Source: Schmidtea polychroa (Eukaryota). Taken from it: a DNA stretch of 64,000 nt. The notes beneath the pieces are model-generated. The model worked only from the letters and a program-made list of their open reading frames with translations, was not told the DNA's origin and made no database searches. The stretch is taken from assembly GCA_044892525.1 (NCBI GenBank), contig CM097885.1, positions 104,346,001-104,410,000 on the forward strand, in the 5' to 3' direction. Positions 2,861-31,753 of the stretch are shown here, one piece after another; positions within the stretch are counted from its first letter, which is position 1, and the number at the start of each line of letters is the position of its first letter. Made by a program: the position numbers and the translations under genes.

Positions 2861-3325
2861 ATGAAAACGAATCGCATTGATATAATTAACAAAGATATGT
2901 TGCTGAAAACATCTGTAAAAAATCAAATAACGAAATTTCTCATTGACCAAAATCTCACCAACAATAATATCCACAAAGAACACATATTTATGGGAGAATA
3001 TTTCAAATATTGCTCCTTGTGGTTTAATAAAATCTTGGTGGATATCCCAACGACATTTGACAACTTAGTCATGAATGACGTGTTCATGCAGATTGTTAAA
3101 GAATTTCAGAGCTATCTAGTAATAGGCGAGCAATTGATTAAAATAATGGAAATAGCTCTCGTCTGGGTCAATAGGAAACTGGAATCCGGTTTCTGTGTGT
3201 CCAGGGAAGAGTTATTGAAATGGCAGTTGGAAATCATAGAAAATTTACAAAACTTACGAATTGAAGAAATCCTATATAGATATAATTTCTACAAGTCGTA
3301 CTATCTCGAGAATCTTTCAGAGTGA
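2861..3325 (+). CDS. Uncharacterised 154-aa ORF (possible exon of the same host gene)
   Basis: ORF-track 154 aa with normal composition in a GC-elevated island; no motif recognised. Confidence 0.35.
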   Translation: MKTNRIDIINKDMLLKTSVKNQITKFLIDQNLTNNNIHKEHIFMGEYFKYCSLWFNKILVDIPTTFDNLVMNDVFMQIVKEFQSYLVIGEQLIKIMEIALVWVNRKLESGFCVSREELLKWQLEIIENLQNLRIEEILYRYNFYKSYYLENLSE

Positions 3326-8329: not shown

Positions 8330-8839
8330 AGTGTTACAAATACCCTTACGATCAGTACCCTTACTATTAATACCCTTACGACTAATACCCTTAGGGGATC
8401 AAAACATCCTGTCGGATAAACTCAGAGTATATATAATAAAATGAATCGACAATAAGTATTTATTGAATACCATTTTTACATTGAAATAATAAGTCAGTAG
8501 TAATCAATTAAAAGAAGAATGTTTTGTAAATTAGAATTCTATAGTCTTTCATTATAATTTAAATTATCCTCAATTCCACGTGGTGTTGAGTTGATAATTA
8601 TTTATTTTTGATGAAAATCATCATTTTTGTTAAATTTAGACACTTAGAAAATGTTTTTCTACTGATTGTAATTAAAATTATTTTTGAGGACAGATAAAAA
8701 AATTAATTTAAAAATCATTTGATAAAATACAATAAAGAATACTTAGTTGGTTGATAGTACATGGTACTTGGTAGCTGGTTGTAAGTACTTGGTATCTAGT
8801 TGTACCTGATAGTTGTTGGTATCTGATTGTTGAATTATT

Positions 8840-8918
<79 letters not shown>

Positions 8919-9853
8919 CATTAAAATTTTCATTTGACTTTGAAAAATATGTCATTGAAATTTGTATTTAAAATTATTTCACAAAAATTTACATTTAAAA
9001 TTTTTATTTCTCAAACACTGACTATTATTTTAACTTTTGTTGATAAATTTAAAAATCTTACTTTAATTTACTTATTATTTTAATTTACTTATTTAAAAAT
9101 CATTACTTTAATTTACTTATTTAACTTTAATTTAAAAATTTGGACCTTAATTTACTTATTTAAAATTTTTAACTTTAATTTACTTATCCTTAATTTACCT
9201 TCATTACTTAATTTTACACCATAATTTACTTAACAACTAAATATAACCCTTATTTTCATATTTTACCAATAATTTCATGTGGTCATTGATTAATTGACGA
9301 AGATTTGCATCTAAAATTAACATTGAAAATCCCAGAAAAGCTTTCATCTTAAATTGACTTTAACTTTAATATTTTAGATCATTGATTACTTAATTTAAAA
9401 AAATAAACATTAATTTACCTATTTAACCAATAATTTTATGTGGTCATCTGGTTGTAAGTACATGGTATCTAGTTGACCTTAATTAAAAATTTGAACCTTA
9501 ATTTACTTTAATTTAATTTTTTAAGACCATAATTTACTTTAATTGAAAAATTTGGACTATTATTTACTTATTTATCCTTTATTTACCACGCTTTTTTAGT
9601 GTAGACCACCTTTTTCTATTGAAAACTACCTTTTTGTATTGAAAATCCCAGGACCAAGGAGACCCATCACTATAGTCTGAATAATCCATGCTTTTTTATT
9701 GAAGACCGCTTTTTTGTATTGTAAAAAAAATTTTGTACTGAAAATCGCAGAAAGCAAAGAAATGTGAGTTGGAACAATTATGTATTCAATAGTTGGAACA
9801 ATTTGACGCCCCCCCCCAGGGGAAATTGTTCCAGGGGCTCCTAACTACCTACT
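8330..9853. mobile_element. Remnant right end (TIR) of a second Polinton-like element
   Basis: 8340-8440 resembles the subterminal repeat of the main Polinton TIR (tgtcggataaactcagagtatata vs tgtcggatagactcggagtatata). It ends in ...CTACCTACT at 9853 (reverse complement AGTAGGTAG) with a C-run about 40 bp inside. No matching left end found. Confidence 0.5.
8842..8917. repeat. (ATT)n microsatellite
   Basis: Pure TAT/ATT run; similar runs at ~2695-2730, 13763-13844, 23381-23461 and 28287-28326. Confidence 0.95.
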
Positions 9854-10848: not shown

Positions 10849-10933
10849 AGGATGAGGCAAAGACGAATCAGAAAGAGTTGATCCTGTCCCCATTGATTTT
10901 AAAAATCATGAAGTCGGATTAGGTGAAAAAACT
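10849..10933 (+). pseudogene. ~85-bp duplicated fragment of the GPATCH11 G-patch coding sequence
   Basis: aggcaaagacgaatcagaaagagttgatcctgtccccattgattttaaaaatcatgaagtcggattaggtgaaaaaact closely matches ~31266-31351. Confidence 0.85.
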
Positions 10934-11379
10934 TTTGTTATTTTTTATCTGTCTATTTTTATCTGGTTACTTGAGCTTTAAATTTAATTTTTGGCTTACT
11001 ATTTTGGGTTATTGTGCACATAATCATATTCACTGTACAAACTGTACCAACTGTACCAATTAATGCAATTTTATTGAAATCAGCATTTGATAAAAAAACC
11101 TTTAAAATGGTGAATGTTGTCCTTTAGATTACTTTACCTTAGCCTTTAACTTAGTCTTAAACTAGTACTAGGAAATAATAGGAAGCAGACTAATAACAAA
11201 TTAAAAAGTCTAAAACAATATTATTTCACTGATTCTTATTAGAGTTCTCAGACTAGACTAAAAAGACTAGCCGTTATCGTAAAGGTTTATATGCAGGAGT
11301 ATAATCTTCATTAATAATAATCTTCACTTATCAACATCAACATTTGTAAAATTGCACTTTTTTTACTTTAAATGCTGGA

Positions 11380-13000
11380 TAATCTGTAATAACTGTGTCG
11401 AAGGTAATCCTTTTGGACAACTGCCGTTCAATTGAAAGAATTGCTAAATTGGAAAGTCATGATTCACTCATTAAGATCTTATATAGATTTTGATCAGTTT
11501 TAGTTTAGAAAACTTCTTTCACAGCTAGCAAAACACAATGTAAAAAATTCAGAGTGCAATGGCTAAGTTGGACAAAGATTCAATGTATCCCTATTTGACA
11601 ATCCATTGAAGTAGTTAGATAGCTCCCCAGTTGTTAACTTCTGTTGATGTTATTTCTTCATAACTGATCCGACTTCTACGAAGAGATTGAACCTAATTTT
11701 TATGATCTTGTGAAATATGTTCGTTATAAGCCTCACATAGTGTGTCAATTGCTTCATCAATACCCGGGTCATTTGCTGTATTTCTAAAATATTCCACTTG
11801 TGTTAGAAATCTAAATTTAGTATTCATTTCATTAATTTGTCGAAATCTCTGTTCAACTCCGGCATACAATCGGTCAAGGATTTGTTTTTGTTCTCGGTTT
11901 ATTTCTTTTTGCTTCCTCTCCCGGCATTCTTTTTTTTCTCCGCACACATCTTTCAGTAATTTCGAAGAAATTCATTTTTCTGTTGAGCATTTTCAACTAA
12001 ATATTTTCTTTCTTCAACAATAAATTTAAGAAGGGATGCAATGTCAGTTGCACATTTATCTAAACCAAGACCCTTTGTTTGAAGATTTTTTCGAGTTTCA
12101 TTTATTTCTATTACTAAGTGGCTCCAGAAACGCTTTCCAACCCCAGTATGAATTCCATACATTGTCGTATCCTAGACATCTGTAATCTTTCAAATTAAGT
12201 CCATCATTTTTGAGTTTTTCGATTATCTGCTCTCTTTAATTGAAGCAGTTTTACCATCAAAAGGGTAGAAATCTACAAAAAATCTGATCACCACATATCC
12301 TTCACGAATATCGACATAACACAGAACTTGAGACATCTGATCAATATTGGATATCTCAGGCGTGTTAACGAAAATGTTGTAAAATCTTTCGTATTCTTTA
12401 CAGCATCAATAACAGCATATCAGACGCTGCCTCAAAGAAGCAAAGTAAATTCGTTCTTGATGTTAGGTGATAGGTATGATACAGTCTATGTCCCACTCGT
12501 AACTTTTGTGATGTGTTTTCTTAATACAGCATCATATTTCCCCACAAGTTTCATTAATTCAAAAATATTTCCATAATTAATATCAGATTCTTCTGATAAT
12601 TTCTCACGATGTCCTCGAAATGGGAGATGTTATTTGGATAAAAACAAAATCCCATCGAAAATTAGTTTTAAAATATCTCTCAATTTGGCAGCATCCTTAG
12701 TAATTTTCAGTTGAAGTCCACTATCAATCGTTAAGCCTGCTTCAAGGCGTACTGTCATATCTTTCTAACTGTCAAAACCTACCAGGTGAGCTGGGATTGT
12801 TTCATGATGAACCACTTTTGGGATCAGTTTTATTCAAATTGTAAATCCTTCAAAGCTTTTAAATGAACTATGATAAGAATTAAAAAACAACACAATGCAT
12901 TTCGTGAAGAAGAAAACATCATCCATGATAGTAAAATCTTATTATTGTTTGGAATCTTTTTGATAAACCACTTTGTAGTTATTGACCTTGATTCGGGCGT
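11380..13000 (-). pseudogene. hAT (ZMYM1/DUF4371-type) transposase remnant, 3' part
   Basis: Minus strand: KWF...SWMMFSSSRNALCCF (TTF-type Zn finger), LPFRGHRE...NYGNIFELM, SYLSPNIKNEF, and C-terminal dimerisation motif ASCERSF/SKLKLIK...LSNLAILSIER; many stops. Confidence 0.85.
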
Positions 13001-13761
13001 AGTAGGGTATTGTGTGGAGTCGGGAACAAAGACATATGACGTCATCGATGACGTCACAAAGACATATGAGTCATACCTCCGGGGGAGGGGGGTATTTTTA
13101 TTTTTTTAAACAAAGACATATGACTCATCGTGATGACTCATAATGATGACTCATCGTCGTGACTCATCGTCGTGACTCATCGTGATGACTCATCGTGATG
13201 CCTCGTCGTGATGACTCATCGTCGTGATGACTCATCGTGATGACTCATCAATGTCATATTATTATTTTTAAAAAATATTATTATTTTATTTTTAAATATT
13301 TTCAAAGTTCCCGTCAACGAAAATTATTCATCGATAGCTCATTTTAAAGCTCAATCCAAGAACTTTCGAATGAGCTATTGAAGGTATCATCATCATCATT
13401 AATATTGACAAAGTTATTAACAAATCATGACCACCTTATTTTCATAGTGAAATTATTATTCAAAATATTATTAGTGGTCCAGCGGAGTCCTGGTTTTCGT
13501 TTGCCCAAAAGTTGTCGTTCCAATCATTTTATTTCATTGTTCGATAGCTCATTTTAAAGCTTAGTGCAAGACCTTTCGAATGAGCTATTGAAGGTATCAT
13601 CATCATTAATATTGACAAAGTTATTATCGTTTTCCCGAGACCATTTTCAAGGTCATATAATTATTATTAATCTATATACTCCGAGTCTATCCGACAAAAT
13701 ATTCTGTCCCTCTATTGGTACGGTTCGTAAGGGTACTGGTCACGCTCAACAACTCGCAATG

Positions 13762-13847
<86 letters not shown>

Positions 13848-14096
13848 CTATATACTCCGAGTCTATCCGACAAGATATTTTGTCCCCCTATGGGTACTGT
13901 TTACAAAGGTAAAGGTCACAAATGTACTGCTAAAAAATATTCAAGACATTAACAAAGAAATTATACTTTAAATATATTAACACACTGGGTAAAGGTAACT
14001 AACAAAACTTTAACATATTATTATTACACACACACAATGTATAAAAATTGTTCACAAAGTTAAAAAAAATATTCAAGACAATATGACTAATACATT
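13001..14096 (+). repeat. Left TIR of the Polinton
   Basis: Reverse complement of 28035-29088. Differs mainly in ATT-repeat length and in substitutions within the TGACTCA array; contains internal direct repeats. Confidence 0.95.
13037..13247. promoter_or_regulatory. Array of 10 AP-1 (TGA[C/G]TCA) and 2 CRE/ATF (TGACGTCA) sites in the left TIR
   Basis: CRE at 13037 and 13049; AP-1 at 13067, 13121, 13134, 13147, 13160, 13173, 13186, 13212, 13228 and 13241. Function is inferred. Confidence 0.6.
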
Positions 14097-14453
14097 CAAG
14101 GTCATATAATTATTATTAATCTATATACTCCGAGTCTATCCGACAAAATATTCTGTCCCTCTATGGGTACTGTTCGTAAGGGTACTGGTCACGNNNNNNN
14201 NNNNNNNNNNNNNNNNNNNNNNNNNNNNNNNNNNNNNNNNNNNNNNNNNNNNNNNNNNNNNNNNNNNNNNNNNNNNNNNNNNNNNNNNNNNNNNNNNNNN
14301 NNNNNNNNNNNNNNNNNNNNNNNNCATTATACCAATATGAATATTGTTTTCATGGTGTATCAAATCAAAACTCCTATTTTTATAGTCTATCAACCAATCA
14401 AAATCATATGGTAGTAATATAAATAAAGCAGTATATTTTAAATTAATTTAGAA

Positions 14454-14982
14454 ATGTCGCAACCAAATTTTAGTGAAAATGTTCTAAACGGAATTGTCAC
14501 CGCGAATATAGTCGACAGCCTCAATTTCCTGATCAATCGAACTGAAAAAATCATTGAAGGTGAACATATCGATTATCAGCAAATGATGGAGATAGAATCC
14601 CTGGAAACCAAGAAGTTATACTTCAATAGAATATTTCAGTGTCTTTTCGATGAAGACATGAAATGGACAAGGATAATTGTAGGATTCACCTACATGAAGA
14701 TAATCATTGCAAAAGGTCAACATGACTCAGAACATTATTATCAGTGGTCTTTAGAAGTAAGATTTCTTTTATAATCTATATTTTATTAATATTCATTTCT
14801 AGATAATCAAGTCCAAGTTTACCCCATGGATAGAAGCCAATGGCGGATGGGGTGTATTAAATAAACTGGCCTGCAATTTTAAAGAAACTGATGAAATCAA
14901 AAGAAAAATGAAAAACTATATAAAACTTACAACTGGAGTTGTTATAATGTATATTTTCTGTAGATATATGAATAAAAATTAA
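14454..14982 (+). CDS. Bcl-2 family protein encoded by the Polinton (2 exons: 14454-14756, 14803-14982; 160 aa)
   Basis: BH1-like LFDEDMKWTRIIVGFTY; phase-0 46-nt intron GTAAGA...TTTCTAG; exon 2 gives BH2-like FTPWIEANGGW and a C-terminal hydrophobic anchor with basic tail (LTTGVVIMYIFCRYMNKN). Confidence 0.85.
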
Positions 14983-15027
14983 TGTTATTGTTTTTTAATA
15001 GTATATTTAAATGAAAATAATTCAATT

Positions 15028-15368
15028 TTAAAATTTATTAACACATTCGCAATCGTCATCTCCACATTTCATTATATTTTCAACGACATGATCAATACAA
15101 TCATTCGTAATATTATCTTTAGGTTCCTCTATAGGTTCATAGATTTCTTCATCAATTTCTTGAGTTTCTTCATGATTGTCAAATCCTGAATCTTGACTTT
15201 CAACTACCCAGCCGATATTTAAGGCATTTGTAACAGATAATATGTCCTCAATTTTTACACCAGCTATTTCTGCTAATTTTTCCAACAAAAAGTTGATTAA
15301 TAATTCTAAATAATAAATAATTCGGTATTTAATTAATCATGTTAACCTTTTTCTGTAGTCATTTTCAT
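15028..15368 (-). CDS. Small acidic Polinton protein (exons 15368-15347, 15305-15028; 99 aa)
   Basis: MKMTTEK/ELLINFLLEKLAEIAGV... joined by a 41-nt GT-AG intron (15346-15306); acidic middle, Cys-rich C-terminus (CGDDDCEC). Confidence 0.65.
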
Positions 15369-15495
15369 CACTTTAAAGCTATATTTTAAGTTTGTTTATA
15401 GATTTTCTTTGTTAAATTTGCATGTCATTTGCATTAATGTTGCAATTAATAAAGAGAAAAAACAAATATGACTAATACATTTATTAAATATCACA

Positions 15496-15915
15496 TTAAA
15501 ATAGTTGTGAAAGTCTAGCAGACATAATTTTCCAAATTGGAGAATACACATCATTATTATCAACTTTATATCCTTGGATTGCAATTGTTATATACCAATT
15601 TTCGTTTTCTTTGAAGCTGATTTCATCAAAGGAATCATAAAATCTTGCATATCTGTTGTTGAACCAGGCATGTTGATTACAAGATAGATTCGTATTCAAC
15701 CGTTTGAAAACCTCATCAATAGATTTAACATCTATCGTTGAAAGCGTGCCTGATAAGAATTGAAATTGGGTAGGAATTAGCTTGATCGGTGACGCCAATT
15801 TCATATTGATTTCTTCTTTTAAAAAATACATTTTATAGTTGTGGAACATTTGAACAGGTTGTACAAGTTCTGGAACAACTTTTGGCTTTTCAGTGCTTGA
15901 AATTTTCTTTGTCAT
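15496..15915 (-). CDS. Polinton hypothetical protein, 139 aa (possible OB-fold SSB)
   Basis: Clean ATG ORF with AATAAA at the stop and TATA/CCAAT-like sequence upstream. The C-terminal YITIAIQGYKVDNNDVYSPIWKI pattern recalls viral SSBs (weak). Confidence 0.7.
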   Translation of the reverse strand: MTKKISSTEKPKVVPELVQPVQMFHNYKMYFLKEEINMKLASPIKLIPTQFQFLSGTLSTIDVKSIDEVFKRLNTNLSCNQHAWFNNRYARFYDSFDEISFKENENWYITIAIQGYKVDNNDVYSPIWKIMSARLSQLF

Positions 15916-16188
15916 CGTGAATTATGATTAAAATGAAATGGTACGGGGTTTTTATACCTATGACTATTGTTTATCAACCAATCAGATTGCTGTATGTCTT
16001 TGTTTAAATTTGCATGTCTTTGTTTAAATTGCATGTCATTTGCATTAATGTTGCATTAATGTTTTTTATTATAAATATTGTTTTTTATTATTATTTCTAA
16101 TATTATTATTATTATTACTTATATTATTACTATTATTTCTATTTCTATTATTTCGATTTACAAAAACAAAACAATTCAACATAAAAAT

Positions 16189-16595
16189 TTATTTTGATAC
16201 AATCTGACTCGAGTGATGATTTCTCAGAGTCTTCACCAAACACCATTCAACATATTGTTGATAACGGAAATTGCAACAGCTACATCCGAAAATGCAAGGA
16301 ACCTCTGGTTTCATTTCTTTCATCCCCCTTCCTATCTTGATATCCCATAGAAAGGTGTTTATTATATCGAATATCCAGATTCGTGTTTGGTTGTATACCA
16401 AATCCGGAATGATAGCTGGATCTCTATCTTGTAGAATTTCATTTAATTCTGGATAATAGAAGCATAATCTTTGCAGGATAATTGATTGATACTGATCTGT
16501 AAAATATATATTAATGTAATAATAAAAAATTTGAAATTACCATAATTTGCATGCTCTTTCATTGAGGTGATTGCGGAACTTTGTATGTTGTACAT
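16189..16595 (-). CDS. Polinton Cys-containing hypothetical protein (exons 16595-16541, 16496-16189; 120 aa)
   Basis: MYNIQSSAITSMKEHANY/DQYQSIILQRLCFYYPELNE... joined by a 44-nt GT-AG intron (16540-16497) that puts exon 1 in frame with the track ORF; C-terminal CIFGCSCC cluster. Confidence 0.65.
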
Positions 16596-16716
16596 TTTTG
16601 TTGAATAAATGACAACTAAACCGAAAACATTTTGTTATAAATAATCATCAGCCAATTAGATTTCGACCAATCAGAATCATGCATTTCAATTGCATTGAAT
16701 TTGCAATGATAAATAA

Positions 16717-17181
16717 TTAATTAAGTGATAATAAAAAATCTAAAAATTCATTTCCTTCAATTATTGATTTAATTTCAGATATGATATTATCAACTATACA
16801 TTTGTAATCAATATTTTTTATTCCAAGAATTACTATCTTACCGCTAGCGAATATATTTACACACATAGGGTTATATTTTATATATCTCAAAGCTGGAAAT
16901 AATTCTGGTTCGTAAACACATGGTATTAATTTAGCCAATTCATTTAAATTACAAGAAAAACCTATATCGGAAGTTACGGTTATCGATTGTATTTCTAAAT
17001 CATAAACATTATATTCACTAGCTTTGATTATTTCCTTACACCCTATAATTCTACATTTGCCTGTTTTGAAATATATTATTGGATATTTTTTACTTCTATT
17101 GATGAGTTGTTGTGGTTTCCCCATTGGAAATACCATTTTTGATACATCAGCTTTTGCCCTGTAATTTATATTTGAAAGCAT
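16717..17181 (-). CDS. TATA-box-binding-protein (TBP)-like protein encoded by the Polinton, 154 aa
   Basis: Second TBP repeat clear: IQSITVTSDIGFSCNLNEL...YEPELFPALRY...VNIFASGKIVILGIK. First repeat degenerate: IYFKTGKCRIIGCK. Confidence 0.9.
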   Translation of the reverse strand: MLSNINYRAKADVSKMVFPMGKPQQLINRSKKYPIIYFKTGKCRIIGCKEIIKASEYNVYDLEIQSITVTSDIGFSCNLNELAKLIPCVYEPELFPALRYIKYNPMCVNIFASGKIVILGIKNIDYKCIVDNIISEIKSIIEGNEFLDFLLSLN

Positions 17182-17285
17182 TTTAATGAAATAATTATAA
17201 AAACTCTGTTATATATAGTTATTTTAAAAAGGAGTTCATTTAAATTATCAATATAAACAATAATTATATAGTTTAAATTTAAAAA

Positions 17286-17924
17286 ATGGAATTACGAAAT
17301 GATGCAGTATACCAAATCGTTGGTCCGAGTGGTAGTGGAAAAACATTATTTGTTTGTAAATTACTAAAATCAAATTTGTTCAAAACAAAATTCAACAATA
17401 TTTATTGGCATAGGGGCGCCGATGAAGAACATGGATTGACACAATCAAGTTTCTGTCAATTGAAAAACATGAAAATAGTAAAGGGTTTTGATAAAAACTG
17501 GTCAAGTCGTTTGAAGAAAGATGATGTCATCATTATCGATGATTTGTATCAAGAAGCCAATAAAGAAAAGAATTTTAATAATTTATTCACAAAAATCAGC
17601 AGGCATGCTGGTGTAACAGTTATTTTCATAACACAAAATCTATTTCATCAAGGTGGTGCACATCGAACACGTAATTTAAATGTACAATATCTAGTTATTT
17701 TCAAAAATCCTAGAGATGCAACTGTCATTGATTTTCTTGGACGACAAGCATACCCTAATAACCGTAATTTTCTTATCAATGCATTTCAAGATGCTACAAA
17801 AATACCTCATGGGTATATATTTCTCGATTTCACACAACAATGTCCTGATGATATACGGGTAAAAACAGATATTTTCAACCCAAAAGGTGCCATGGTTTAT
17901 AAACAAAGTTCAAAACAAATTTGA
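17286..17924 (+). CDS. A32/FtsK-like genome packaging ATPase
   Basis: Walker A GPSGSGKT, Walker B IIIDD, ISRH...IFITQNLF...RTRNLNVQYLVIFKNPRD typical of the Polinton ATPase. Confidence 0.95.
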   Translation: MELRNDAVYQIVGPSGSGKTLFVCKLLKSNLFKTKFNNIYWHRGADEEHGLTQSSFCQLKNMKIVKGFDKNWSSRLKKDDVIIIDDLYQEANKEKNFNNLFTKISRHAGVTVIFITQNLFHQGGAHRTRNLNVQYLVIFKNPRDATVIDFLGRQAYPNNRNFLINAFQDATKIPHGYIFLDFTQQCPDDIRVKTDIFNPKGAMVYKQSSKQI

Positions 17925-17937
17925 AAACACATAAATC

Positions 17938-18432
17938 ATGTTTTCAAAAACAAGGATATCGAGTAAAAAACAACCAAAAGTTCCACCAACAACTAGTTAT
18001 ACTCCATCTAAAGAACTTATTACAGAAAATTTTCCTGCAATGAATCTTATTTCGAAAAATCCTAAACCTAAACCTAAAAGTAAAACCACTAAGAAAGTAA
18101 AAGTTGTTAAAAATCATCGGAGTTTCCCGCTTTTCAATACATTGTTAAAGGCACCCAGTATGAAAAGAAACAGTATTTTGCAATCTTTTCCAAATTATGT
18201 TGTCGATGATTTACTCAATATTATACTTAAAGTAGTCAAAGGCAAGATTAAAATCAGTAAATCTAAAAACCAATTATTGAGTAAACATAGGAAACCATTG
18301 TTATCTTTAGTAAATAATAAAAATCGTCAACAAATGAGAAAAATTATATATAAACAACAAGGGGGATTTATCGGTGCATTGATACCTTTAGCAATATCAT
18401 TATTAGGTGGAATAATAGGAAGTCGATCATAA
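17938..18432 (+). CDS. Basic core protein with adenovirus pX(mu)-like C-terminus
   Basis: Very Lys-rich 164 aa ending QQGGFIGALIPLAISLLGGIIGS, resembling the GG-cleavage site plus amphipathic tail of adenoviral pX. Confidence 0.7.
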   Translation: MFSKTRISSKKQPKVPPTTSYTPSKELITENFPAMNLISKNPKPKPKSKTTKKVKVVKNHRSFPLFNTLLKAPSMKRNSILQSFPNYVVDDLLNIILKVVKGKIKISKSKNQLLSKHRKPLLSLVNNKNRQQMRKIIYKQQGGFIGALIPLAISLLGGIIGSRS

Positions 18433-18493
18433 ACAATGGGTGCTAATCCTTCATTACCAGACATTAAATTTAATTTTAAATCTTCTTGTTGTA

Positions 18494-19675
18494 ATGGAGA
18501 AGATTTGGACGAACCCAGAAGACGAAGCCGGTTTCGGTGGAGTGGCAAAATTAAACAAAAGAGTTCCGAATTCGAAAAAGGAAACCCAGAAGTGGTTATC
18601 AGACCAGCTTGCGTACAGTTTGAACAAACCAATGCAGAAACGATTCCCAACAAGAGTATATAAAACATATGGAATAAATGATTTATGGCAAATGGATTTG
18701 ATGGAGATGATACCTTATTCGAAAATTAACAATGAGAATAAATATATTTTAACATGTATTGATGTATTCAATCGGTTTGCCCGAGCAATACCCGTCAAGG
18801 CAAAATCTGCAGATGAAATGTCTAAAGCAATTAATATTTTATTTAAAGATGGGCATCCTAATANNNNNNNNNNNNNNNNNNNNNNNNNNNNNNNNNNNNN
18901 NNNNNNNNNNNNNNNNNNNNNNNNNNNNNNNNNNNNNNNNNNNNNNNNNNNNNNNNNNNNNNNNNNNNNNNNNNNNNNNNNNNNNNNNNNNNNNNNNNNN
19001 NNNNNNNNNNNNNNNNNNNNNNNNNNNNNNNNNNNNNNNNNNNNNNNNNNNNNNNNNNNNNNNNACAGTAAAGTCAAGCAAATCCTCAATAAATTAAAAA
19101 TAAACCATTACTCGGTACATTCTCAATACAAAGCTGCTCATGTTGAAAGATTTAACAGAACATTGAGAGATAGATTAAAGAAATTATTCGTGCATCAAGG
19201 TAATAAAAAATGGGTAAATGCTTTACCGAAAATAATAACAAGTTATAATCATTCATCACATCGAGGACTGGATGGATTGAGACCGGTTGATATTACATCA
19301 AAAACACCAGTATCTAAGAAATCTGTAAAAATTGCAAAACCTAAATATAAAGTCGGTGACCATGTTAGAATTAGTAAAATTAGTGCATCACCATTTATTA
19401 AAAATTTCGATACAAATTGGAGTGACGAAGTCTTTGTAATTTCAAAAATAAATACTAGCCAGAGTCCTGTAATGTATGTCATCAAAGACAATGATAATAA
19501 TATTGTACAAGGGAAATTTTATGAGCAGGAATTACAAGTCATTCCTCCTCCAAAAGTATTTAGAATTCAAAAGATATTGAAAACTAAAAAGGTCGGCAAG
19601 GATAAACAATACTATGTCAAATGGCATGGTTATCAAAACCCGTCATGGATATCAGAAAAGGATCTACTAAAGTGA
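18494..19675 (+). CDS. Retroviral-type (rve) integrase with C-terminal chromodomain
   Basis: WQMDLMEM, LTCIDVFNRFA, HVERFNRTLR, YNHSSHRGL, KVGDHVRI, chromodomain IQKILKTK...YYVKWHGY..PSWI. The second catalytic Asp falls in the N-gap 18864-19064. Confidence 0.93.
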   Translation: MEKIWTNPEDEAGFGGVAKLNKRVPNSKKETQKWLSDQLAYSLNKPMQKRFPTRVYKTYGINDLWQMDLMEMIPYSKINNENKYILTCIDVFNRFARAIPVKAKSADEMSKAINILFKDGHPNXXXXXXXXXXXXXXXXXXXXXXXXXXXXXXXXXXXXXXXXXXXXXXXXXXXXXXXXXXXXXXXXXXXXSKVKQILNKLKINHYSVHSQYKAAHVERFNRTLRDRLKKLFVHQGNKKWVNALPKIITSYNHSSHRGLDGLRPVDITSKTPVSKKSVKIAKPKYKVGDHVRISKISASPFIKNFDTNWSDEVFVISKINTSQSPVMYVIKDNDNNIVQGKFYEQELQVIPPPKVFRIQKILKTKKVGKDKQYYVKWHGYQNPSWISEKDLLK

Positions 19676-20687
19676 ATTTTTATACTATTTTACCGAGCAA
19701 TAGTTGCCCATTAATTCATCCAGACAATCAAGCCAGTAAATTTATGGTCAATCTCCAGAATCCGATTTCTTTAAATGGTGACTGGGAAGTTGCACTGCAA
19801 GATTTTACATTCGTGTACAACACATTCCCATTTTATAGTCAATGTAAGATTGATTTCAAAAGGAATATTGTGAAAACATGTAGCGGTATCTTTATTATCA
19901 GTAATTATGATAAAACATATCGTATTCCGAATCAAATATTAGATTCACATTGCTATATGTTTTACAAGGATGGATTAAATATCAGTTGTGATTTTAAACC
20001 ATTTACAATAACATTCGAATATATTGAAGATGCCAAACGAATGGGTTGCAGTAAGTTGAAAAATATTGTTACGGAGACCGAGTATTTATTACGTTTTAAT
20101 CTATTTGAAGCAAACAGTGTAATGAAAGAAGAAATCAAAATATCTGTATCGTATAATGATGAAGTTGAAGAATCATTTACCTTTGCTGATGAATTATATT
20201 TTGATAAACTTGATGATTTACTTAAATATTTAAAGTTCAATTGTTCACACATATTTAAAAATTTGGAAATTGTGAAAGATTTGATGTTTACCTTCAGTTT
20301 GAATGATGATATTTGTGAAGTTACATTTGAAAAAATTTGGCAAATTCGCTTGGATTAGATAAGCAAAAATATCGAGAAAAATCGACTGGTATACGCAAAC
20401 CAAGAATACTAGAACATCATCAACAAATGTTCATATATATAAATATTATCGAACCCATAATTGTTGGTGATTCCAGTGTTCCTCTATTGAAATCGGTATG
20501 GATTGGAAAATATGAACATGATGAAGTTGTCAATATAAATATAGATAATCCCATGTATTTACCAATAGCAAGTTCATGTATAAACAATATAGAAATAAAT
20601 ATTCGTGATGATAGTGGAAAACTTATAAACTTTCCAAAAGACTCAAAAACTCATTTGACACTACATTTTCGTAAAGTAGATGGCTAA
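19645..20687 (+). pseudogene. Minor capsid protein (penton), frameshifted near 20330-20340
   Basis: N-terminal FYTILPSNS..HPDNQASKF.V.L...I.L.GDWEVAL; C-terminal MFIYINIIEPIIVGDSSVPLL...LHFRK. Adding one A to the A6 run joins the two ORFs (FEKNLANSLGL). Confidence 0.85.
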
Positions 20688-21042
20688 TTCCGATATTATT
20701 AGTATGTATAGTGATAGCCAATCTGGCGGTGAATTACCATATTTTATTGGTAAACAGTACGGATCAGGTTGGTTAAAAACAATAGGGAGATTTGCACTTC
20801 CTATTCTTAAACGTATTGGTAGTTTTGGCATGAAAACTGCTAAAGACGTGATTATGAATGAACAGAAAATATTACCATCCCTAAAAACAAATGCTTTAGC
20901 TGAGTTAGGGAAGGTTCTACCTGGAGTTGCTGGTATGTTTCAAAAAGATACGCCTCCAGCCCCAGCTCAAAAACGTAAAAGACATGGAATATCGCGTATA
21001 AACAAACGAATGAAAGGACATGGAACTATATTTGCAAAATGA
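20680..21042 (+). CDS. Small virion protein with QxGG/QxGxG motifs and amphipathic helix (pVI/core-like)
   Basis: SQSGGELPYFIGKQYGSGWLKTIGRFALPILKRIG, basic C-terminus; lies just upstream of the major capsid gene. Confidence 0.75.
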   Translation: MANSDIISMYSDSQSGGELPYFIGKQYGSGWLKTIGRFALPILKRIGSFGMKTAKDVIMNEQKILPSLKTNALAELGKVLPGVAGMFQKDTPPAPAQKRKRHGISRINKRMKGHGTIFAK

Positions 21043-22223
21043 TTTGTGGTAAATCCGAATTATGTATATTTGATAGACCATCGCCTCAAGCTGTAATAGA
21101 ATTTGGTGCATTTGAGGAAGTTTTTCCTATGAATTCAATTACTGATAGTAGAAATGATATCGAGTTTTATATTAATGGTTCGCAAACTGAATATTTAGAT
21201 TTGAACGATACTTTATTGACTGTTCAGATCAAGGTTGTAGATAAAGAAAGAAAAGTTTTGGATGCCAATGCAGATGTAATACCGAACAATTTCATGTTTC
21301 ATACTCTGTTTAAAGATGCAGTGTTGGGATTTAATAATATCAAGATTGAAGGCATTAATAGAAACTATTTTAAATTACAATTCTGATACTAAAAATACAT
21401 GTCTTACACCTATGGGTTATGGCAGTGATGATGAAAGAAAAAAGTGGGTTAAAGGCTCAAAGGTTTTCACCATGTGCTCATCATTACAACTTGATTTTAT
21501 GGATCAACCGAAATATTTACTACCGGGAGTTAATGTACACATTAGACTGAAAAGGTTCGATTCTGCATTATCTCTTACTAGTGCAACTGGTGCACCAATA
21601 TGCCAATTAGTTGATGCAAAATTATTGGTGAGAAGAGTTCGAGTAGACCCGTCAGTATTAGCTGGTCATCAATTGGGGCTTAATTCAAAACATGCAATTT
21701 ATCCTTTAAAAACAAAGGAAATTGTACAATTTGCTATTGCTAAAGGTGCTTCATCATTCTATAAAGAACAAATATTTGGTGACAGAAGAATGCCTAATTT
21801 TATTCTGGTAACATTTCAAAGTGAAACGCAATATAATGGATCTTCCAGCTCAATTTTCAAAATTTTGGTGTTACTTCATTGACTTTGTCGAAAAATACTG
21901 ATTATAGAGAAACATATACTCAAGATTTCGAAAGCGATAATTACTGTGCGACATATATGCAGAGTATTGTTAGAAATCTGGGTTACTTAGATAAAAACTT
22001 GAATTGTGGAATAACTCTAGAAGATTTTAAAAGCAAATACCCATTTTTCACATTTGTTTTAGCCCCTGATTTTGATTTAAATCAGAGTCAACTACCTCAA
22101 AATGGAAATTTACGACTGGATATTAAGTTTGCAAGAGCCATTACTGAACCGGTACATGTTATAATATATGGAGTATTTGAAAATGAAGTTCAAATTACTG
22201 CAAATAGAACCGTGCTAGTATAA
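21039..22223 (+). pseudogene. Major capsid protein (double jelly-roll), broken into three ORFs
   Basis: KSELCIFDRPSPQAVIE...IEFYINGSQTEYLDLNDT; ALIETILNY; LQLDFMDQPKYLLPGVNVHIRL; RMPNFILVTF; GNLRLDIKFA. Frame breaks near 21350 and 21850. Confidence 0.9.
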
Positions 22224-22635
22224 ATGTATACAGAAACACAAAACGTTGTCATGGAGTAAGTTTTTTGATACTGTTTAATTTTATTAAAGTAGTTCTGTTC
22301 AGGTTAATCGAATTGGAAAACAGATATTAGGAAATGAATTTATAGGTGTTTTTCCTCTTGATAAAATTCCTTATTTGAGCAATAATCAAGCTATAATCGT
22401 CAATACTCATTCATCTCATCTTGGTGGAGAACATTGGATAGCTATATATGTGAAACCTAGTAATATATTCGTATTCGATCCTATGGGTTTCTATTATCCT
22501 TCTTTGTTGATATCAAAACTTCAAACAATTGGGAAACCTATTGTATATAATAAAACTATGTTTCAAAATCCATTGACTCAAACATGTGGTCAACACTGTT
22601 TGGCATGGTTGTTGTATACAAAATTTGATGGTTAA
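22224..22635 (+). CDS. Adenain-like cysteine protease, spliced (exon 1 22224/22251-22255, exon 2 22293-22635)
   Basis: Removing the 37-nt intron GTAAG...GTAG gives MDSVQVNRIGKQILGNEFIGVFPLDKIP. Catalytic GEHW, FDPMG and QTCGQHC are present. Confidence 0.88.
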
Positions 22636-23072
22636 TAAATGTATACTGTATGATTTTTATTTGTTGACTATTTTAATTATTTGTTAAATATTATTATTAT
22701 TATTAATATTATTATTATTAATATTATTAATATTATTATTATTTTGAAAAAATATTATTATTTTAATTAATTTTATTATTCAAATAAATATTATTAATTC
22801 TACATAAAGACTACCTATGCCTGAAGCATGCACAGTGCAAGTTAACAAAGGCATGACTAACAAAGGCAGTCACATGTAATTTTTGAGTGATTTACATGTA
22901 TGCGTGTGATTGGTTGAGAGAGTAAAATATTCAGTGTATATGTGTGTGTCTATATTCTCATTGGCTGGGACAGGAAAATATTCATTCTCTTTATAAACAT
23001 CGACAAATCTAAAATTTGTCACAATTATTTTAAAATTTTAAAAATCTATTAATAATAATAATATTTAACAAC

Positions 23073-23337
23073 ATGAACAACAACAATATTCAAAGAGTTG
23101 ACGGAAAGATCGTTGGAGGAATTAATGGTAAATTTATTATTTTATTATTTTATTATTTTTAATATGATTATTAGGTACTAATCAACAAATGAATATCGAC
23201 GGACAAGCTGTAGACATGAATAGAATAAATGGTAATAGTTTACTATTATAATCATTATTATTTTATTATGCTTTTAGATGGAATAAATACTTCTGCTGGT
23301 TCTGATGCTGGAAAATTTCTTTCGAAAGGACGAAAAT
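23073..23337 (+). CDS. Micro-exon gene inside the Polinton (23073-23127, 23175-23231, 23278-23337, then an open donor)
   Basis: Three phase-1 exons of 55, 57 and 60 nt separated by 47- and 46-nt GT-AG introns read MNNNNIQRVDGKIVGGINGTNQQMNIDGQAVDMNRINDGINTSAGSDAGKFLSKGRK. GTAAGT donor at 23338; next exon not identified. Confidence 0.65.
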
Positions 23338-23380
23338 GTAAGTATTTATTTATTGTTATAAGTTTTTAAGTTTTTTAAAC

Positions 23381-23461
<81 letters not shown>

Positions 23462-23477
23462 TAAAAGAAGATTATAA

Positions 23478-23720
23478 AGAAACTTATGAAAAGAAGATAT
23501 TTTAAAAGAAGATTTATTTATGATGATTTTGAAAGGAATATTTATGAAAAGAAGATTTATTCATGAAAAGAAGATTTATTTATGATGATTTTGAAAAGAA
23601 GATTCATGAAAAGAAGATTTATTTATGATGATGATTTTGAAAAGAAGATTTATTCATGAAAAGAAGATTTATTTATGATGATTTTGAAAAGATGATTTAT
23701 TAAATATGATGATTTTGAAT
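23478..23720. repeat. Degenerate tandem repeat (gaaaagaagatttatt/tatgatgatttt units)
   Basis: About 8 imperfect copies upstream of PolB. Confidence 0.8.
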
Positions 23721-23981
23721 ATTATAATTAATAACTTTTATATATTATTTATGAAAATAAAATCTATTTTAGAAAATGAATTATTTATTTATGAAAATGA
23801 ATTAAATTATTTATGAAAACGAATTAAATTATATATTTTATAATAATTTTTATAGTATTTTTTTATAAGATACTATTTAAAAGACAATTTTGAATAATAT
23901 CTTACGAAAAATATCTTAAACTTTAAAAATGATTATCTTAATATTTTTTAAACATTTTATGATAAAAATATTTTCATTGGT

Positions 23982-26900
23982 TTGAAATACCAAAACTTTT
24001 GTAATAGTCAATATCATAATGACGGCGATGATATAATGGAAAGATATTATAGTCATAAATATAACGGTGTCACCTACATTCTATGCCCTAAATGTGAGGT
24101 TATTGAAGTTATAACGTATAAGGAATTTTATAATAAGCATAGACTCCATCTCCAACAATTTAAACCTTCTAAGAAGTCTCTTTTCTATAGCTTATATGAA
24201 TCGTTTGTTAACAATAATAATAATAATAATAATAATAATATCACCAGCAACAATAATATCAACAATAATGATAATAATATCACCAGCAACAATAATATCA
24301 ACAATAATGATAATAATAATATCACCAACAATAATACTAACAACACCAATAATAATGATATAAACGAAATAACTGAACTAAAAGATCAAGTAAATAAATT
24401 AAATGATCAAATAAATAATCTAATTAATATGAATAAAAGAAAAAATAATGAAAAAATAAATTCAATACCAAGTAAAAAATCTAAAGTTATTGATGTAATT
24501 ACAATAAGTGATGATGAAATAATCAACATAAGTGATGATGAAATTGATAATAATAGTAGTAGTAATATTTATTATAATAATGGTATTAATAATAATATTA
24601 ATCAAATAGGTTATGGTGTCGTAGATGTCACCAGTGATTTAAATAATAATCATATTATATTAAAAATGGACGTTTCGTCTTTAGATTTAAAAACGGTCTC
24701 TGTACCAGACATTTTAATAAATAAATTAAAATTATATGTAAATAAATTAAAATCATGTAAAATTCAATTTTGTCTAAAGGTGGAATTTATAAAAGATGAT
24801 GAGTTACAATCTTTTGTAATCTCGAATTCCGCCCGAGTTTGGAGCGATACATTCATTGACGAAGGTATTGCTCGTTTAAATGAAAAAATAATTAAAATTA
24901 ATGAGAAAGGTAGTAATTGGACTATCAATAAAATAGAATACATAAGCTTTGTTCTTACTAAATTTGCTGAAATAAGTCGGTTAAGTGGTAGAAGTTTTAT
25001 TGAAACCCCAAAATCTTTAAGAAACTTAAGCTGTCTCGTTAATGTAGTTAATAATGACCACTTCTGTTTTTTGTATAGTTTCTTGTCAATTATTAAATAT
25101 GATAGTATAAATAGGCAATATAGAAATCGCCCTAATTCATACAATCTTTCTGAAATTAAATTTGATCCTAATGATATGCCGATGAAACTATCAAATATAA
25201 GTAAATTTGAACAACAAAATCCAGGTTATAGTATAAATGTTCTTACTTATAACGAAAAGGCTTTGATTGACATTTCCGATGAAGATGCAGTTATGAAACA
25301 TCCCTTTATTGATATAATATACAGGAGTAAGATAGTAGGAGCCATACCTATCAATTTATTATTAATTGAAAAGAATGATAATTATCATTATCTTGGAATC
25401 ATAGACCTAAATAGATTCCTTAATTGTAGGAATAGTTCAATCACTCCTGTTAGGATTTGTAGTCAATGGTGCCCTAGATGTTTAAACGGTTTTAGGAATG
25501 ATGACGCTTTTAATAGACATAAGGGTCTTTACGATAAAAATCAGCTTGGTACTACCTTGTACACATTGCCTAAAAATAAATATTTAGAATTTACTGATTG
25601 GAGTAAAACAGTCACTCCTCCCTTTGTTATTTACGCTGACTTTGAGGCTATCTTACCTAAAGACACTCGCTACTTTCAACGTCATCTGCCTATTTCTGCC
25701 GGTATGCTTTTTATTAATAATTTCTCGGGCGTAAAGATTTATAAGTCGTTCACCGGTTTAGATTGTGTCGATCAATTTCTTACTGAAATTGAAATGATAG
25801 GGAAATATATTGTAACTCCTTATTATTATAAAAATTATCAAAAGAAAATGATAATTACAGATGAGCAGGAATTAATGTTTGAAAACAGCACATCATGCTA
25901 TTTGTGCAATAAGCCTTTAGTTAGTCCAGTTAGGGACTATGATCATTTTACCGGTTTATATCTCGGTGCCGCTTGTACAACTTGTAATCTGTCGAGGCAA
26001 ATTAGACATACCCTTCCTGTAGTATTTCATAATTTAAAGGGTTATGATCTGCATCATATCTTGAAATTTGGCCTTTCAAAATATCATTCATGGAATATTA
26101 GTTGTATTCCTTTAACCAGCGAGAAATTCCTTAGTCTTTTTGCTAGGATTGACTCATTAACTGTTAAATTTATAGACTCTTATCAATTTGTCAGCGAGTC
26201 TTTAAATAATGCTGTCAAAACTTTATCATCTTTACCCTTGACCGAATCAGAATTTCAGGGTACAATAATAACTGCAAAAGGAATTATTCCTTATGATGCC
26301 GCAACTTCATTAGAGGTTTTGCATAACACTCATCAGTTACCTCCTATTTGGAAAGATGTGACTCCCGCTGAATATGAGACAGCTCAGAGAATTTGGCTTG
26401 AAACTTCATGTACTTCACTTTTTGATTACACGATGGTTTATTTAAAACTTGATGTTTTCCTTTTAGCCGATTTTTTCCAGCAATTTAGAGCTAAGTCCAT
26501 TGCTCATAACCGACTAGAGCCATTAAATTTCTTAGGGATTCCAGGTATGTCTTGGAATTCAGCCTTATTAACTTTAAACTCTCCAATTGAGCTCCTCACC
26601 GATATGGAGATGTATAACTTTTTCGAGGGCGGTATCCGTGGCGGACTAACTTTTGTAAATAAACATTATGTAAAAACAGACCCGGATACCGCTTTGCTTT
26701 ACATAGATATAAATAATTTATACGGTTGGGCTTTAAGTCAACCATTACCTTGCAGTGACTTTGAATGGGTTACTGATGATAATTTATTAAATAATATAAT
26801 TGTTGAATGCACAACGGTAGATTTAGATCTGCTTGATTATGGTTATACCATAGAAGTGGATTTAGAAATACCGACGTCAATTCACGACAAACTGGACGAT

Positions 26901-28014
26901 CTTCCCGTTGCCGCTGAAAAGATGTGTGTACCGGGTTCGAAAATAGAGAAGCTGTTGCTTACACACAGCCCCAAGAGGAACTACGTTCTTCATTGGAGGC
27001 TTCTACAAATATTTATTAAATTAGGTGTTAAAATATTAAAAACACATAGAGCAATAATTTAAACAAGATAAAATTTTCAAAAATTATATTAACACAAATA
27101 CGGCGTTACGAGCAGCGTCGACAAATAAACTTTATAAATTATTAAACAACAGTCTTTACGGCAAGACTGTTGAAAATCTTAAAAAACGTATTAATTTACG
27201 TCTGTGTAATTCTTCACAGAGATTATTAACATTCTGTTCGAAACCGACTTTTCGTAAATCCACGAAAATCGATGATGACTTGATTTCGGTTTTATTGAGG
27301 AAGGACATAGTGTGTTTGAATAGACCTAGTTACATTGGTCAAGCCGTACTTGATTTATCCAAACTTCGCATGTACCAGCTGCAGTATGAAGAGTTGCAAA
27401 AATATCGCGACGAATTCAACTGCGAAATTAATATCGTTGCTGGAGACACAGATTCCTTCTTCTTGGAAATTAAACATTGTAGTCTTGACATTCTTTTACC
27501 TGCGATGATTAGAGATCAATTATTAGATACTTCGAATTATGACCCAAATCATCCTTTATATAGTAGGAACCTTGATTCTGTTATTGGTAAATTCAAAGAC
27601 GAGAATAAAGGGTTATTATATAAAGATTGGGTGTTCTTGAGACCTAAATGTTACAGTTTGATGGGTGATGAGGAAAGTATGAAGGCTAAGGGGATAAGTA
27701 TGAAAGATACTGGACTAACACCCCAGTCGTATCTAGATTGCTATTTAAATGATAAAATATACACAGTCCCTCAGTTTAGAATAACGTCAAAAAATCACCA
27801 ACTTTTTAGTATTAAAAATAATAAAAGAGCCTTGACATGTAGAGATGATAAGCGAAATTGGGTGGATAAAAATCAAAGTTTGGCATATGGCCATTATAGG
27901 GGCGGTGACACCGTTATATTTATAGATTCAACGGAAGCTATCTCAACAGATGATACAGATGATTTCCATGATCCAGCATATGATAATTATTTTGGACATG
28001 ATTATTTTCGATGA
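23982..28014 (+). pseudogene. Protein-primed family B DNA polymerase, frameshifted at ~27057
   Basis: Exo motifs VIYADFE, FHNLKGYD, YLKLDV; Pol motifs LYIDINNLYGWA, KLLNNSLYGK, GDTDS; endonuclease-VII-like Zn domain CYLC...DYDHFTG...ACTTCN. ORF 23982-27062 continues in another frame that is open from 27058 to 28014. Confidence 0.95.
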
Positions 28015-28034
28015 TGTGTTTAAATTATTTAATA

Positions 28035-28283
28035 AATGTATTAGTCATATTGTCTTGAATATTTTTTTTAACTTTGTGAACAATTTTTATACATTGTGTG
28101 TGTGTAATAATAATATGTTAAAGTTTTGTTAGTTACCTTTACCCAGTGTGTTAATATATTTAAAGTATAATTTCTTTGTTAATGTCTTGAATATTTTTTA
28201 GCAGTACATTTGTGACCTTTACCTTTGTGAACAGTACCCATAGGGGGACAAAATATCTTGTCGGATAGACTCGGAGTATATAG

Positions 28284-28327
<44 letters not shown>

Positions 28328-29088
28328 CATTGCGAGTTGTTGAGCGTGACCAGTACCCTTACGAACCGTACCAATAGAGGGACAGAATATTTTGTCGGAT
28401 AGACTCGGAGTATATAGATTAATAATAATTATATGACCTTGAAAATGGTCTCGGGAAAACGATAATAACTTTGTCAATATTAATGATGATGATACCTTCA
28501 ATAGCTCATTCGAAAGGTCTTGCACTAAGCTTTAAAATGAGCTATCGAACAATGAAATAAAATGATTGGAACGACAACTTTTGGGCAAACGAAAACCAGG
28601 ACTCCGCTGGACCACTAATAATATTTTGAATAATAATTTCACTATGAAAATAAGGTGGTCATGATTTGTTAATAACTTTGTCAATATTAATGATGATGAT
28701 GATACCTTCAATAGCTCATTCGAAAGTTCTTGGATTGAGCTTTAAAATGAGCTATCGATGAATAATTTTCGTTGACGGGAACTTTGAAAATATTTAAAAA
28801 TAAAATAATAATATTTTTTAAAAATAATAATATGACATTGATGAGTCATCACGATGAGTCATCACGACGATGAGTCATCACGATGAATCACCACGATGAG
28901 TCACTGCGATGGGTCATCACAATGGGTCACGACGATGAGTCATCATGATGAGTCATCACGATGAGTCATATGTCTTTGTTTAAAAAATAAAAATACCCCC
29001 TCCCCCCGGGGGGTATGACTCATATGTCTTTGTGACGCCATCGATGACGTCATATGTCTTTGTTCCCGACTCCACACAATACCCTACT
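28035..29088 (-). repeat. Right TIR of the Polinton
   Basis: Inverted copy of 13001-14096. Confidence 0.95.
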
Positions 29089-29094
29089 GGGCGT

Positions 29095-30803: not shown

Positions 30804-31045
30804 AGTTATAGTATAGTACTATTCGGTAGTATTAGTCATAATTGATTTATCATAATTTTAAATAATTTGATTTTTAAACCGAAAAGTTGACAAAATTATT
30901 TTTAAATAATATTTAATTAAAATAAATATATTTGTTTTAATATGCAAAATTATAATTTTATATAGTATTTATTTCAAACTTAAATTTAATAAATTTGTTG
31001 ATATTTAAAAAAATTTTTTGGTTATTAATAATATTTTTAAATAAC

Positions 31046-31753
31046 ATGTCAGACGAAGAAGATTATATGTCAGATGCTATTCTCTTGAAATTATGTGAAC
31101 CTAATTTAACTAAAAAGCAGTCTATTAAGAAAATTCCTGAATACACTCCTCCAATTAAAATTAAAAAACTTGAACAGATTAATAGAACTGAAGGCTTAGA
31201 AAAAAAAATTTCCTCCGACAATAAAGGGTATGCTATTCTTTTAAAAATGGGATATAAACCAGGTAAAGGATTAGGCAAAGACGAATCAGGAAGAGTAGAT
31301 CCTGTCCCCATTGATTTTAAAAATAATAAAGTCGGATTAGGTGAAAAAACTGTTTTAAATGATAAAATTGAATTTAAAAAAGCAATGTACGAAGATATTA
31401 AAATAAATTATAGGATTAATATGAGCAAACAATATGAAGAGAAGAATTTCACAAATAATTTAAATAAAATTCAAAGAATTTGCAGGGATTTAGACATGGA
31501 AAGGGATTTACAAGTTCCACTTAAAGATTGGTATTGGCCAAATTACAAAGAAAAGAAATCTAATTATGATGTTGACATTGAAGAATATTTCGAACTAGAA
31601 AGTTGTGATCTTTCAGATGAAGAAAAATTATTATATATTTATGAATATCTCAGAAAAATGTTTTTCTATTGTTTTTGGTGTGGAAGTTGTTTTTCGAATG
31701 AATCAGAATTGTCAGAAAGCTGCCCGGGATTTCTAAAAGAAGATCATGAATGA
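31046..31753 (+). CDS. GPATCH11: G patch domain-containing protein 11 (CCDC75), single exon, 235 aa
   Basis: MSDEEDYMSD N-terminus, G-patch NKGYAILLKMGYKPGKGLGKDESG...VGLG, C-terminal YLRKMFFYCFWCG...CPG...EDH (DUF4187). Confidence 0.9.
   Translation: MSDEEDYMSDAILLKLCEPNLTKKQSIKKIPEYTPPIKIKKLEQINRTEGLEKKISSDNKGYAILLKMGYKPGKGLGKDESGRVDPVPIDFKNNKVGLGEKTVLNDKIEFKKAMYEDIKINYRINMSKQYEEKNFTNNLNKIQRICRDLDMERDLQVPLKDWYWPNYKEKKSNYDVDIEEYFELESCDLSDEEKLLYIYEYLRKMFFYCFWCGSCFSNESELSESCPGFLKEDHE

Follow-up and report, generated by a model that had tools for sequence, protein, structure and literature searches.

The window analyzed here is a stretch of 64,000 nucleotides from Schmidtea polychroa (assembly GCA_044892525.1, contig CM097885.1, positions 104,346,001 to 104,410,000 of the forward strand), and it contains a Maverick/Polinton element at window positions 13001–29088. 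We propose that genes of this element are interrupted by inherited spliceosomal introns of its Maverick/Polinton family and that the family likely needs host nuclear transcription and splicing for the production of its protease, its integrase, and its full-length polymerase. The probability of this reading is estimated to be roughly 0.9. The family has at least eight introns, and these differ in age; the protease intron is old, and the integrase intron is found only among close relatives (at least 78% identity).

An earlier, sequence-only reading of the window had proposed six GT...AG segments as introns, and their boundaries were found to be exact. Introns 1 (14757–14802, 46 nucleotides, phase 0), 4 (22256–22292, 37 nucleotides, phase 2), 5 (23128–23174, 47 nucleotides, phase 1), and 6 (23232–23277, 46 nucleotides, phase 1) are located on the plus strand. 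Introns 2 (15306–15346, 41 nucleotides, phase 1) and 3 (16497–16540, 44 nucleotides, phase 1) are on the minus strand, which had been left unstated. The lengths range from 37 to 47 nucleotides, none is a multiple of 3, and the segments are very AT-rich (GC content of 6–19%). Excision leaves open exon frames, as had been claimed, and retention stops reading after 106, 6, 39, 2, and 29 codons in the five genes. The statement that most of the introns lie just after the start codon holds for three of the six, with first exons of 16, 22, and 5 nucleotides; intron 5 follows after 55 nucleotides, intron 1 after 303 nucleotides, and intron 6 is internal. The proposed likeness to the introns of the host gene RNASEH1 extends to size (41, 42, 49, 44, 46, and 62 nucleotides) but not to base composition, since the RNASEH1 introns have a GC content of 21–34% and those of the element are more AT-rich. 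By eye the introns look mutually unrelated, with no shared intron sequence; no genome-wide search with the intron sequences was made.

For the three introns that rescue a start codon (introns 2 and 3 and the protease intron), the 150 nucleotides upstream were subjected to dinucleotide shuffling, 2000 times each. Start rescue by any GT..AG pair was obtained in 38/2000, 106/2000, and 375/2000 shuffles, respectively, and rescue by GTWW..YAG was obtained in 7/2000, 57/2000, and 120/2000. A single sequence taken alone makes a case for these three introns that is suggestive, not decisive. It is the comparative and RNA evidence that carries the intron case.

The sister copies were examined in 40 ten-kilobase loci from the same genome, 20 of them close copies and 20 chosen from a Pfam search. 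In copies for which both flanks were found, the GT and AG ends were kept in 14/15 for intron 1, 17/17 for intron 2, 15/15 for intron 3, 36/36 for intron 4, and 20/20 for intron 5. For intron 6, GT–AG ends were recognized by script in 9/20 copies; the other 11, inspected by eye, contain a 47-nucleotide GT..AG segment and a 6-nucleotide exon insertion. The lengths across the sisters were determined to be 43–100, 41, 44–56, 36–40, 39 or 47, and 46 or 47 nucleotides for introns 1 through 6, respectively, and they differ by non-multiples of 3. In 39 loci, frameshifting indels were counted at 58 of 4361 intron sites (13.3 per kb) versus 17 of 28,918 exon sites (0.59 per kb), and the intron end dinucleotides had changed at 2 of 456 sites. 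The comparison across family copies that the sequence-only reading had suggested thus yields near-invariant ends and interiors that vary in length, and GT–AG ends conserved across copies are what is expected of U2-type introns.

The RNA evidence consists of assembled contigs from sequencing runs that are only guessed to be RNA, none being recorded as such. With the large DNA-like run X3 set aside, the joint 14756/14803, in which intron 1 is removed exactly at its GT..AG ends, was found in contigs of X1 and X2, and a joint that removes intron 2, in a sister variant, was found in one contig of X2. Pattern searches of the assembly returned 1025 copies that carry intron 1 and, with gaps of 0–30 allowed, no copy that lacks it, together with 104 copies of the intron 2 variant and none without the intron. 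Because the assembly holds no intron-less template, these joints are most likely the result of splicing. Among these presumed RNA contigs, introns 1 and 2 are removed at their exact ends; for introns 3–6 no removal was seen among the rows listed. When run X3 dominated the comparison, there was no splice joint among the 15 rows listed. The exact removal of introns 1 and 2, along with the conserved ends in the sisters, makes spliceosomal introns the best reading of these segments.

The adenovirus-type cysteine protease (PF00770) is encoded at 22251–22635 on the plus strand. Its first exon is composed of the conserved start ATG at 22251 and two further bases, so that the donor of intron 4 is found five bases after the start. 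An upstream ATG at 22224 was ruled out as the start because in several sisters it is followed by stops or indels, and a nearer AG, which would define a 34-nucleotide intron, was ruled out because it is absent from subfamily B. Down to 72% protein identity, sequences still have the short first exon and the two intron ends, with a different intron interior. There is no methionine ahead of the catalytic histidine in exon 2, and the initial methionine of the spliced protease aligns with the start column of intron-less relatives. Many homologues in databases have translated intron sequence at their beginning instead. This assembly (G000) yielded no protease start without an intron. In the metagenomic relative L111, at about 3030–3075, the small gene after the protease seems by eye to carry a short GT–AG intron.

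The protease intron recurs outside this genome. In a set of 37 metagenomic protease loci, the arrangement ATG-RA/GT...AG was found at the same site and phase, with introns of 37–47 nucleotides, in 11 loci that represent about eight distinct lineages at 45–58% identity. Of the remaining loci, 12 have an in-frame ATG without an intron, 1 is cut at the end of its contig, and 13 are too distant to call. In a protease tree, a 97/95 branch parts 18 intron-less rows from the rest; one row from the same genome was dropped from this tree as too short, 9 distant loci were left out, four long-branch rows are unreliably placed, and the intron state of the P-proteins was assigned by eye from the protein N-termini alone. 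Because the tree has no root, gain of the protease intron cannot be distinguished from loss. These comparisons indicate that the protease intron is old and inherited, and it may predate this host because distant elements share it.

Several observations weigh against the proposal of inherited spliceosomal introns. The sister copies share ancestry, and their indel counts are not independent; the distinct frameshifting events number 32 in 261 intron nucleotides versus 13 in 1562 exon nucleotides. Substitutions within the introns (2.4%) are not above those in the exons (3.2%), and intron 2 is nearly invariant among the sisters. The ATG-start protein P0003 nests among the intron-type proteases, either through loss of the intron or as the product of a spliced transcript. 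Among the joints listed there is none for the integrase or for introns 3–6; for introns 3–6 coverage was thin or contigs ended at repeats, and the lack of joints does not count as evidence. X1 and X2 belong to one study, X3 is no clean negative control as its joints were partly listed, and unspliced forms of introns 2, 3, and 4 and of the integrase segment are also present in contigs. Finally, the polymerase open reading frame has its own in-frame ATG at 24036, so that the spliced leader described below is not strictly required, and 29 of the 32 integrase segments have lengths of 3n and are free of stop codons.

The retention of introns could have a purpose of its own. Spliced and unspliced forms coexist in X2; if the introns served as a control device, retention of the start-proximal and in-frame integrase introns would silence the element outside permissive cells. 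Such a role would add to the explanation by inherited introns, and we consider it unlikely, though worth keeping in mind. Three of the introns are found no more than 22 nucleotides from the start, so that their retention abolishes the protein, and the ATPase and putative capsid genes showed no introns. However, DNA could be the source of the unspliced contigs, as could read-through RNA from copies within host genes. An excess of introns toward the 5′ end is, moreover, common in eukaryotes.

Introns 5 and 6 lie between three small exons (23073–23127, 23175–23231, and 23278–23337, plus strand), with which the DNA polymerase gene likely begins. A seventh intron (23338–23979, plus strand, phase 1) is long and filled with repeats; its donor is present in the window copy, from which the acceptor used by the sisters is absent. 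All 20 sister rows that are long enough (17 copies) have the donor at 23338 and, a short way into the polymerase frame, an acceptor in phase with it, and phase-1 chains link small exons to the long polymerase open reading frame in two subfamilies. In subfamily B the same layout is produced by four phase-1 introns in an unrelated leader, where several chains could be drawn; the leader of a metagenomic relative has a single chain, made up of five introns of 42–46 nucleotides. The leader donors (23128, 23232, and 23338, and those of L052 at 8785–9202) are all phase 1 and are preceded by AATG or AAAT, in two subfamilies with unrelated leader exons. It has to be considered that the accessory and protease introns are real and that the three small exons are a separate mini-gene, with the polymerase starting at the internal ATG at 24036, within the stretch 23952–28014 on the plus strand. 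The leader exons differ between subfamilies, no leader introns were seen by eye in the relative L105, and no RNA joint for this region is among the rows listed. We nevertheless find a mini-gene improbable, since the donor and in-phase acceptor persist in every sister row that could be compared, the leader runs up to the 23338 donor without a stop of its own, and the arrangement is repeated in subfamily B. The alignments argue that introns 5 and 6 and the seventh intron likely form a spliced polymerase leader rather than part of a stand-alone gene, and the difference in leaders between subfamilies suggests repeated intron gain at 5′ ends.

The integrase, an rve protein with a chromodomain, is encoded at 18494–19675 on the plus strand, and the window copy reads N over the motif region that is split in the sisters. 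There, a GT...AG segment of 39–177 nucleotides, almost pure (ATT)n, interrupts the catalytic Q-T-D-x-G-K-E-F motif, which is contiguous in five more distant integrases. The donor was matched 1879 times in the assembly versus one gap-free match; the latter was ruled out as a processed retrocopy because it belongs to a distant family in the same genome. One could read the segment as a coding poly-isoleucine loop, or as the mark of non-autonomous copies moved by an intron-less partner. The stop-free 3n lengths of most segments, the retained forms in X7, and the distant intron-less integrase family in the same genome would fit these ideas, both of which we regard as very unlikely. The segment splits a motif that the five relatives keep intact, 3 of the 32 segments are not 3n in length, and one sister (78–83% identity) has an ordinary 40-nucleotide non-repeat intron at the same site. 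The 3n lengths are, in addition, a trivial outcome of trinucleotide slippage. The integrase segment reads as a younger intron that was probably overrun later by a microsatellite.

That the segments are merely AT-rich junk or small insertions in decayed copies with GT–AG ends by chance is scarcely credible: it can appeal to a window copy broken in several genes and to the 19% of shuffles in which a loose GT..AG rescued the protease start, but it is largely refuted by the recurrence of the protease site at 45–58% identity and by the exact joints in RNA-like contigs without a genomic template, and it is at odds with ends that are near-invariant while the interiors tolerate frameshifts.

The first three introns are found in accessory genes. 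A Bcl-2-like gene (14454–14982, plus strand) is composed of exons 14454–14756 and 14803–14982, which we take to contain BH1-like and BH2-like regions, respectively, and the second exon ends in a hydrophobic tail (anchor). Each exon alone matches the Bcl-2 family among the PDB hits, weakly and in the correct order (9/9 for exon 1, best E of 0.028; 42/43 for exon 2, best E of 0.38). Intron 1 separates the BH1-like from the BH2-like region, and splicing is needed for a complete Bcl-2-like domain, which may have an anti-apoptotic role. The protein collection contains 3 homologues; each of them stops at the donor or slightly beyond it and so represents no spliced product. Among the titles returned by a literature search for Polinton and Bcl-2, none concerned such a gene. 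The orphan acidic open reading frame A (15028–15362, minus strand) has a first exon of 16 nucleotides and a second in-frame ATG at 15368. The orphan cysteine-containing open reading frame B (16189–16562, minus strand) has a first exon of 22 nucleotides. Neither has a Pfam hit, and an ESM Atlas search gave no usable match for the latter.

Spliceosomal introns would imply transcription of the element in the nucleus by RNA polymerase II and adaptation to the host spliceosome, as the sequence-only reading had argued. Splicing of the protease, polymerase-leader, and integrase introns is predicted from their conserved ends; host splicing would then be obligatory for the protease and the integrase, and the spliced leader would yield the full-length polymerase. 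Mavericks replicate from DNA to DNA without reverse transcription, and the introns may persist because this cycle has no reverse-transcribed step to purge them. The expectation that such genes are hidden from annotation based on open reading frames was borne out, as database proteins of the clade begin or end in translated intron. We offer as a tentative possibility that the element belongs to a widespread, undescribed invertebrate Maverick clade that became dependent on the spliceosome. This clade would be marked by the ancient protease intron and would still be acquiring short introns in its replication and integration genes, though not in those for capsid and packaging; intron size would restrict the host range like a lock, and retention would switch the life cycle.

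The element itself is 16,088 bp in length (16.1 kb), has AGTAG ends, and is flanked perfectly by a 6-bp target-site duplication (identical 6-mers at 12995–13000 and 29089–29094). The left terminal inverted repeat (13001–14193) pairs with a partner at about 28035–29088, and the arms are 97–100% complementary. The genes include a protein-primed family B polymerase, an rve integrase, a packaging ATPase, and an adenovirus-type protease. The Pfam matches to the ATPase (PF04665) and the protease are above the cut-off; those to the polymerase (PF03175, E of 5.7e-5) and the integrase (PF00665, E of 7.1e-6) are to gene pieces and fall below the curated cut-off. With the terminal inverted repeats, the target-site duplication, and this set of genes, the element is a Maverick/Polinton. 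Tandem 13-nucleotide units of the TGACTCATCGTCG type are found in the terminal repeats (13107–13253 and 28841–28977) and contain TGACTCA, presumably an AP-1-like word.

No intron was seen in the A32-like packaging ATPase (17286–17924, plus strand) or in a TBP-like gene (16717–17181, minus strand; PF00352, E of 5e-15), which occurs in metagenomic relatives too. A putative minor capsid gene, a small open reading frame, and a putative major capsid gene occupy 19645–22223 on the plus strand; the capsid names are our assumption from position, since the genes have no Pfam match, and relatives keep open reading frames in the usual place. The window copy is damaged, with frame breaks relative to the sisters in both putative capsid genes and the polymerase. 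In a sister, the ATPase and putative capsid genes are single open frames without intron-sized gaps versus up to eight relatives. A 75-codon open reading frame at 18436–18663 (plus strand) overlaps the start of the integrase and is possibly an overprinted gene; it begins with MGANPS, which we take to resemble an N-myristoylation signal.

The assembly is 781 Mb, AT-rich, and mostly in four large contigs. The best 150 protease matches listed are all 96–100% identical, which indicates a very large family, and the integrase motif has 1879 matches. A scan of viral contigs found no relative, and no informative names came from cluster look-ups. A near-identical twin of the element and RNASEH1 is located at G000:C4, about 6.16–6.23 Mb (L001, L031), with an intervening distance that is ∼19 kb longer; it is a segmental duplication, not an independent transposition. 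In L061, tandem 3.46-kb units composed of the capsid end, the protease, and the polymerase end constitute an amplified deletion derivative. A host PIWI gene (39187–41724, minus strand) with an uninterrupted frame of 845 codons is found 10 kb from the element, and a G-patch/DUF4187 gene lies to the right of the element (30956–31753), with a short similar fragment on the left (10856–10981). In planarians, Polintons are de-repressed when PIWI is knocked down (PMC8532177).

If splicing is required, transcription would be nuclear, and a cytoplasmic life dependent on giant viruses would become less plausible for this lineage. Maverick lineages could be ordered by a conserved intron site, a character of a rare kind, and introns of different ages in a family of more than 1000 copies constitute a natural series for studies of intron gain. 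In the usual account, Maverick core genes are intronless, which is a descriptive rather than a defining trait, and this element departs from that account. Term searches of the accessible portions of PMC8502044, PMC10748475, PMC11296320, PMC6431247, PMC11244446, and 10.64898/2026.07.28.741278 returned nothing on spliceosomal introns in Polinton core genes. Outside Repbase records, subscription papers, and supplements, our literature searches turned up no account of Maverick core genes with fixed spliceosomal introns.

The adenoviral polymerase has a tiny first coding exon. Adenoviruses are related nuclear DNA viruses, and their mRNAs, including those of the polymerase unit, are spliced by the host (PMC7851563; this and the following comparisons draw on the accessible portions of each source). 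In adenoviruses, splicing brings together distant exons from long alternative units, whereas short host-sized introns interrupt single genes here. The Mavericks/Polintons of vertebrates have been described as intronless (Barreat and Katzourakis 2021, PMC8097293). They share with this element the terminal inverted repeats, the 6-bp target-site duplication, the polymerase, integrase, ATPase, and protease (PMC8097293); the difference is that the core genes here carry inherited introns. Since surveys define intact Mavericks by intronless open reading frames (PMC8097293), families with introns would be counted as dead or annotated wrongly.

The core genes of nematode Mavericks have been termed intronless, with introns being a mark of cargo derived from the host (Widen et al., bioRxiv 10.1101/2022.07.12.499685). 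Their intron-bearing genes are found near the left repeat, like the Bcl-2-like gene and the two orphan genes of this element, but the split genes of this element also include the protease and, likely, those for the integrase and polymerase. Cryptophyte Polinton-like viruses have self-splicing group I introns of 309–376 bp in a small gene (PMC12220804); introns in a Polinton-like genome are common to both systems, and those of this element are of the GT–AG type and 37–47 nucleotides in length. Spliceosomal-type introns are also found within the Maverick-Polinton-like proviruses of dinoflagellates, where they are mobile introners, mostly acquired after integration (PMC11957031). In the family described here, by contrast, more than 1000 copies have their introns fixed at homologous positions, and distant lineages share the protease intron.

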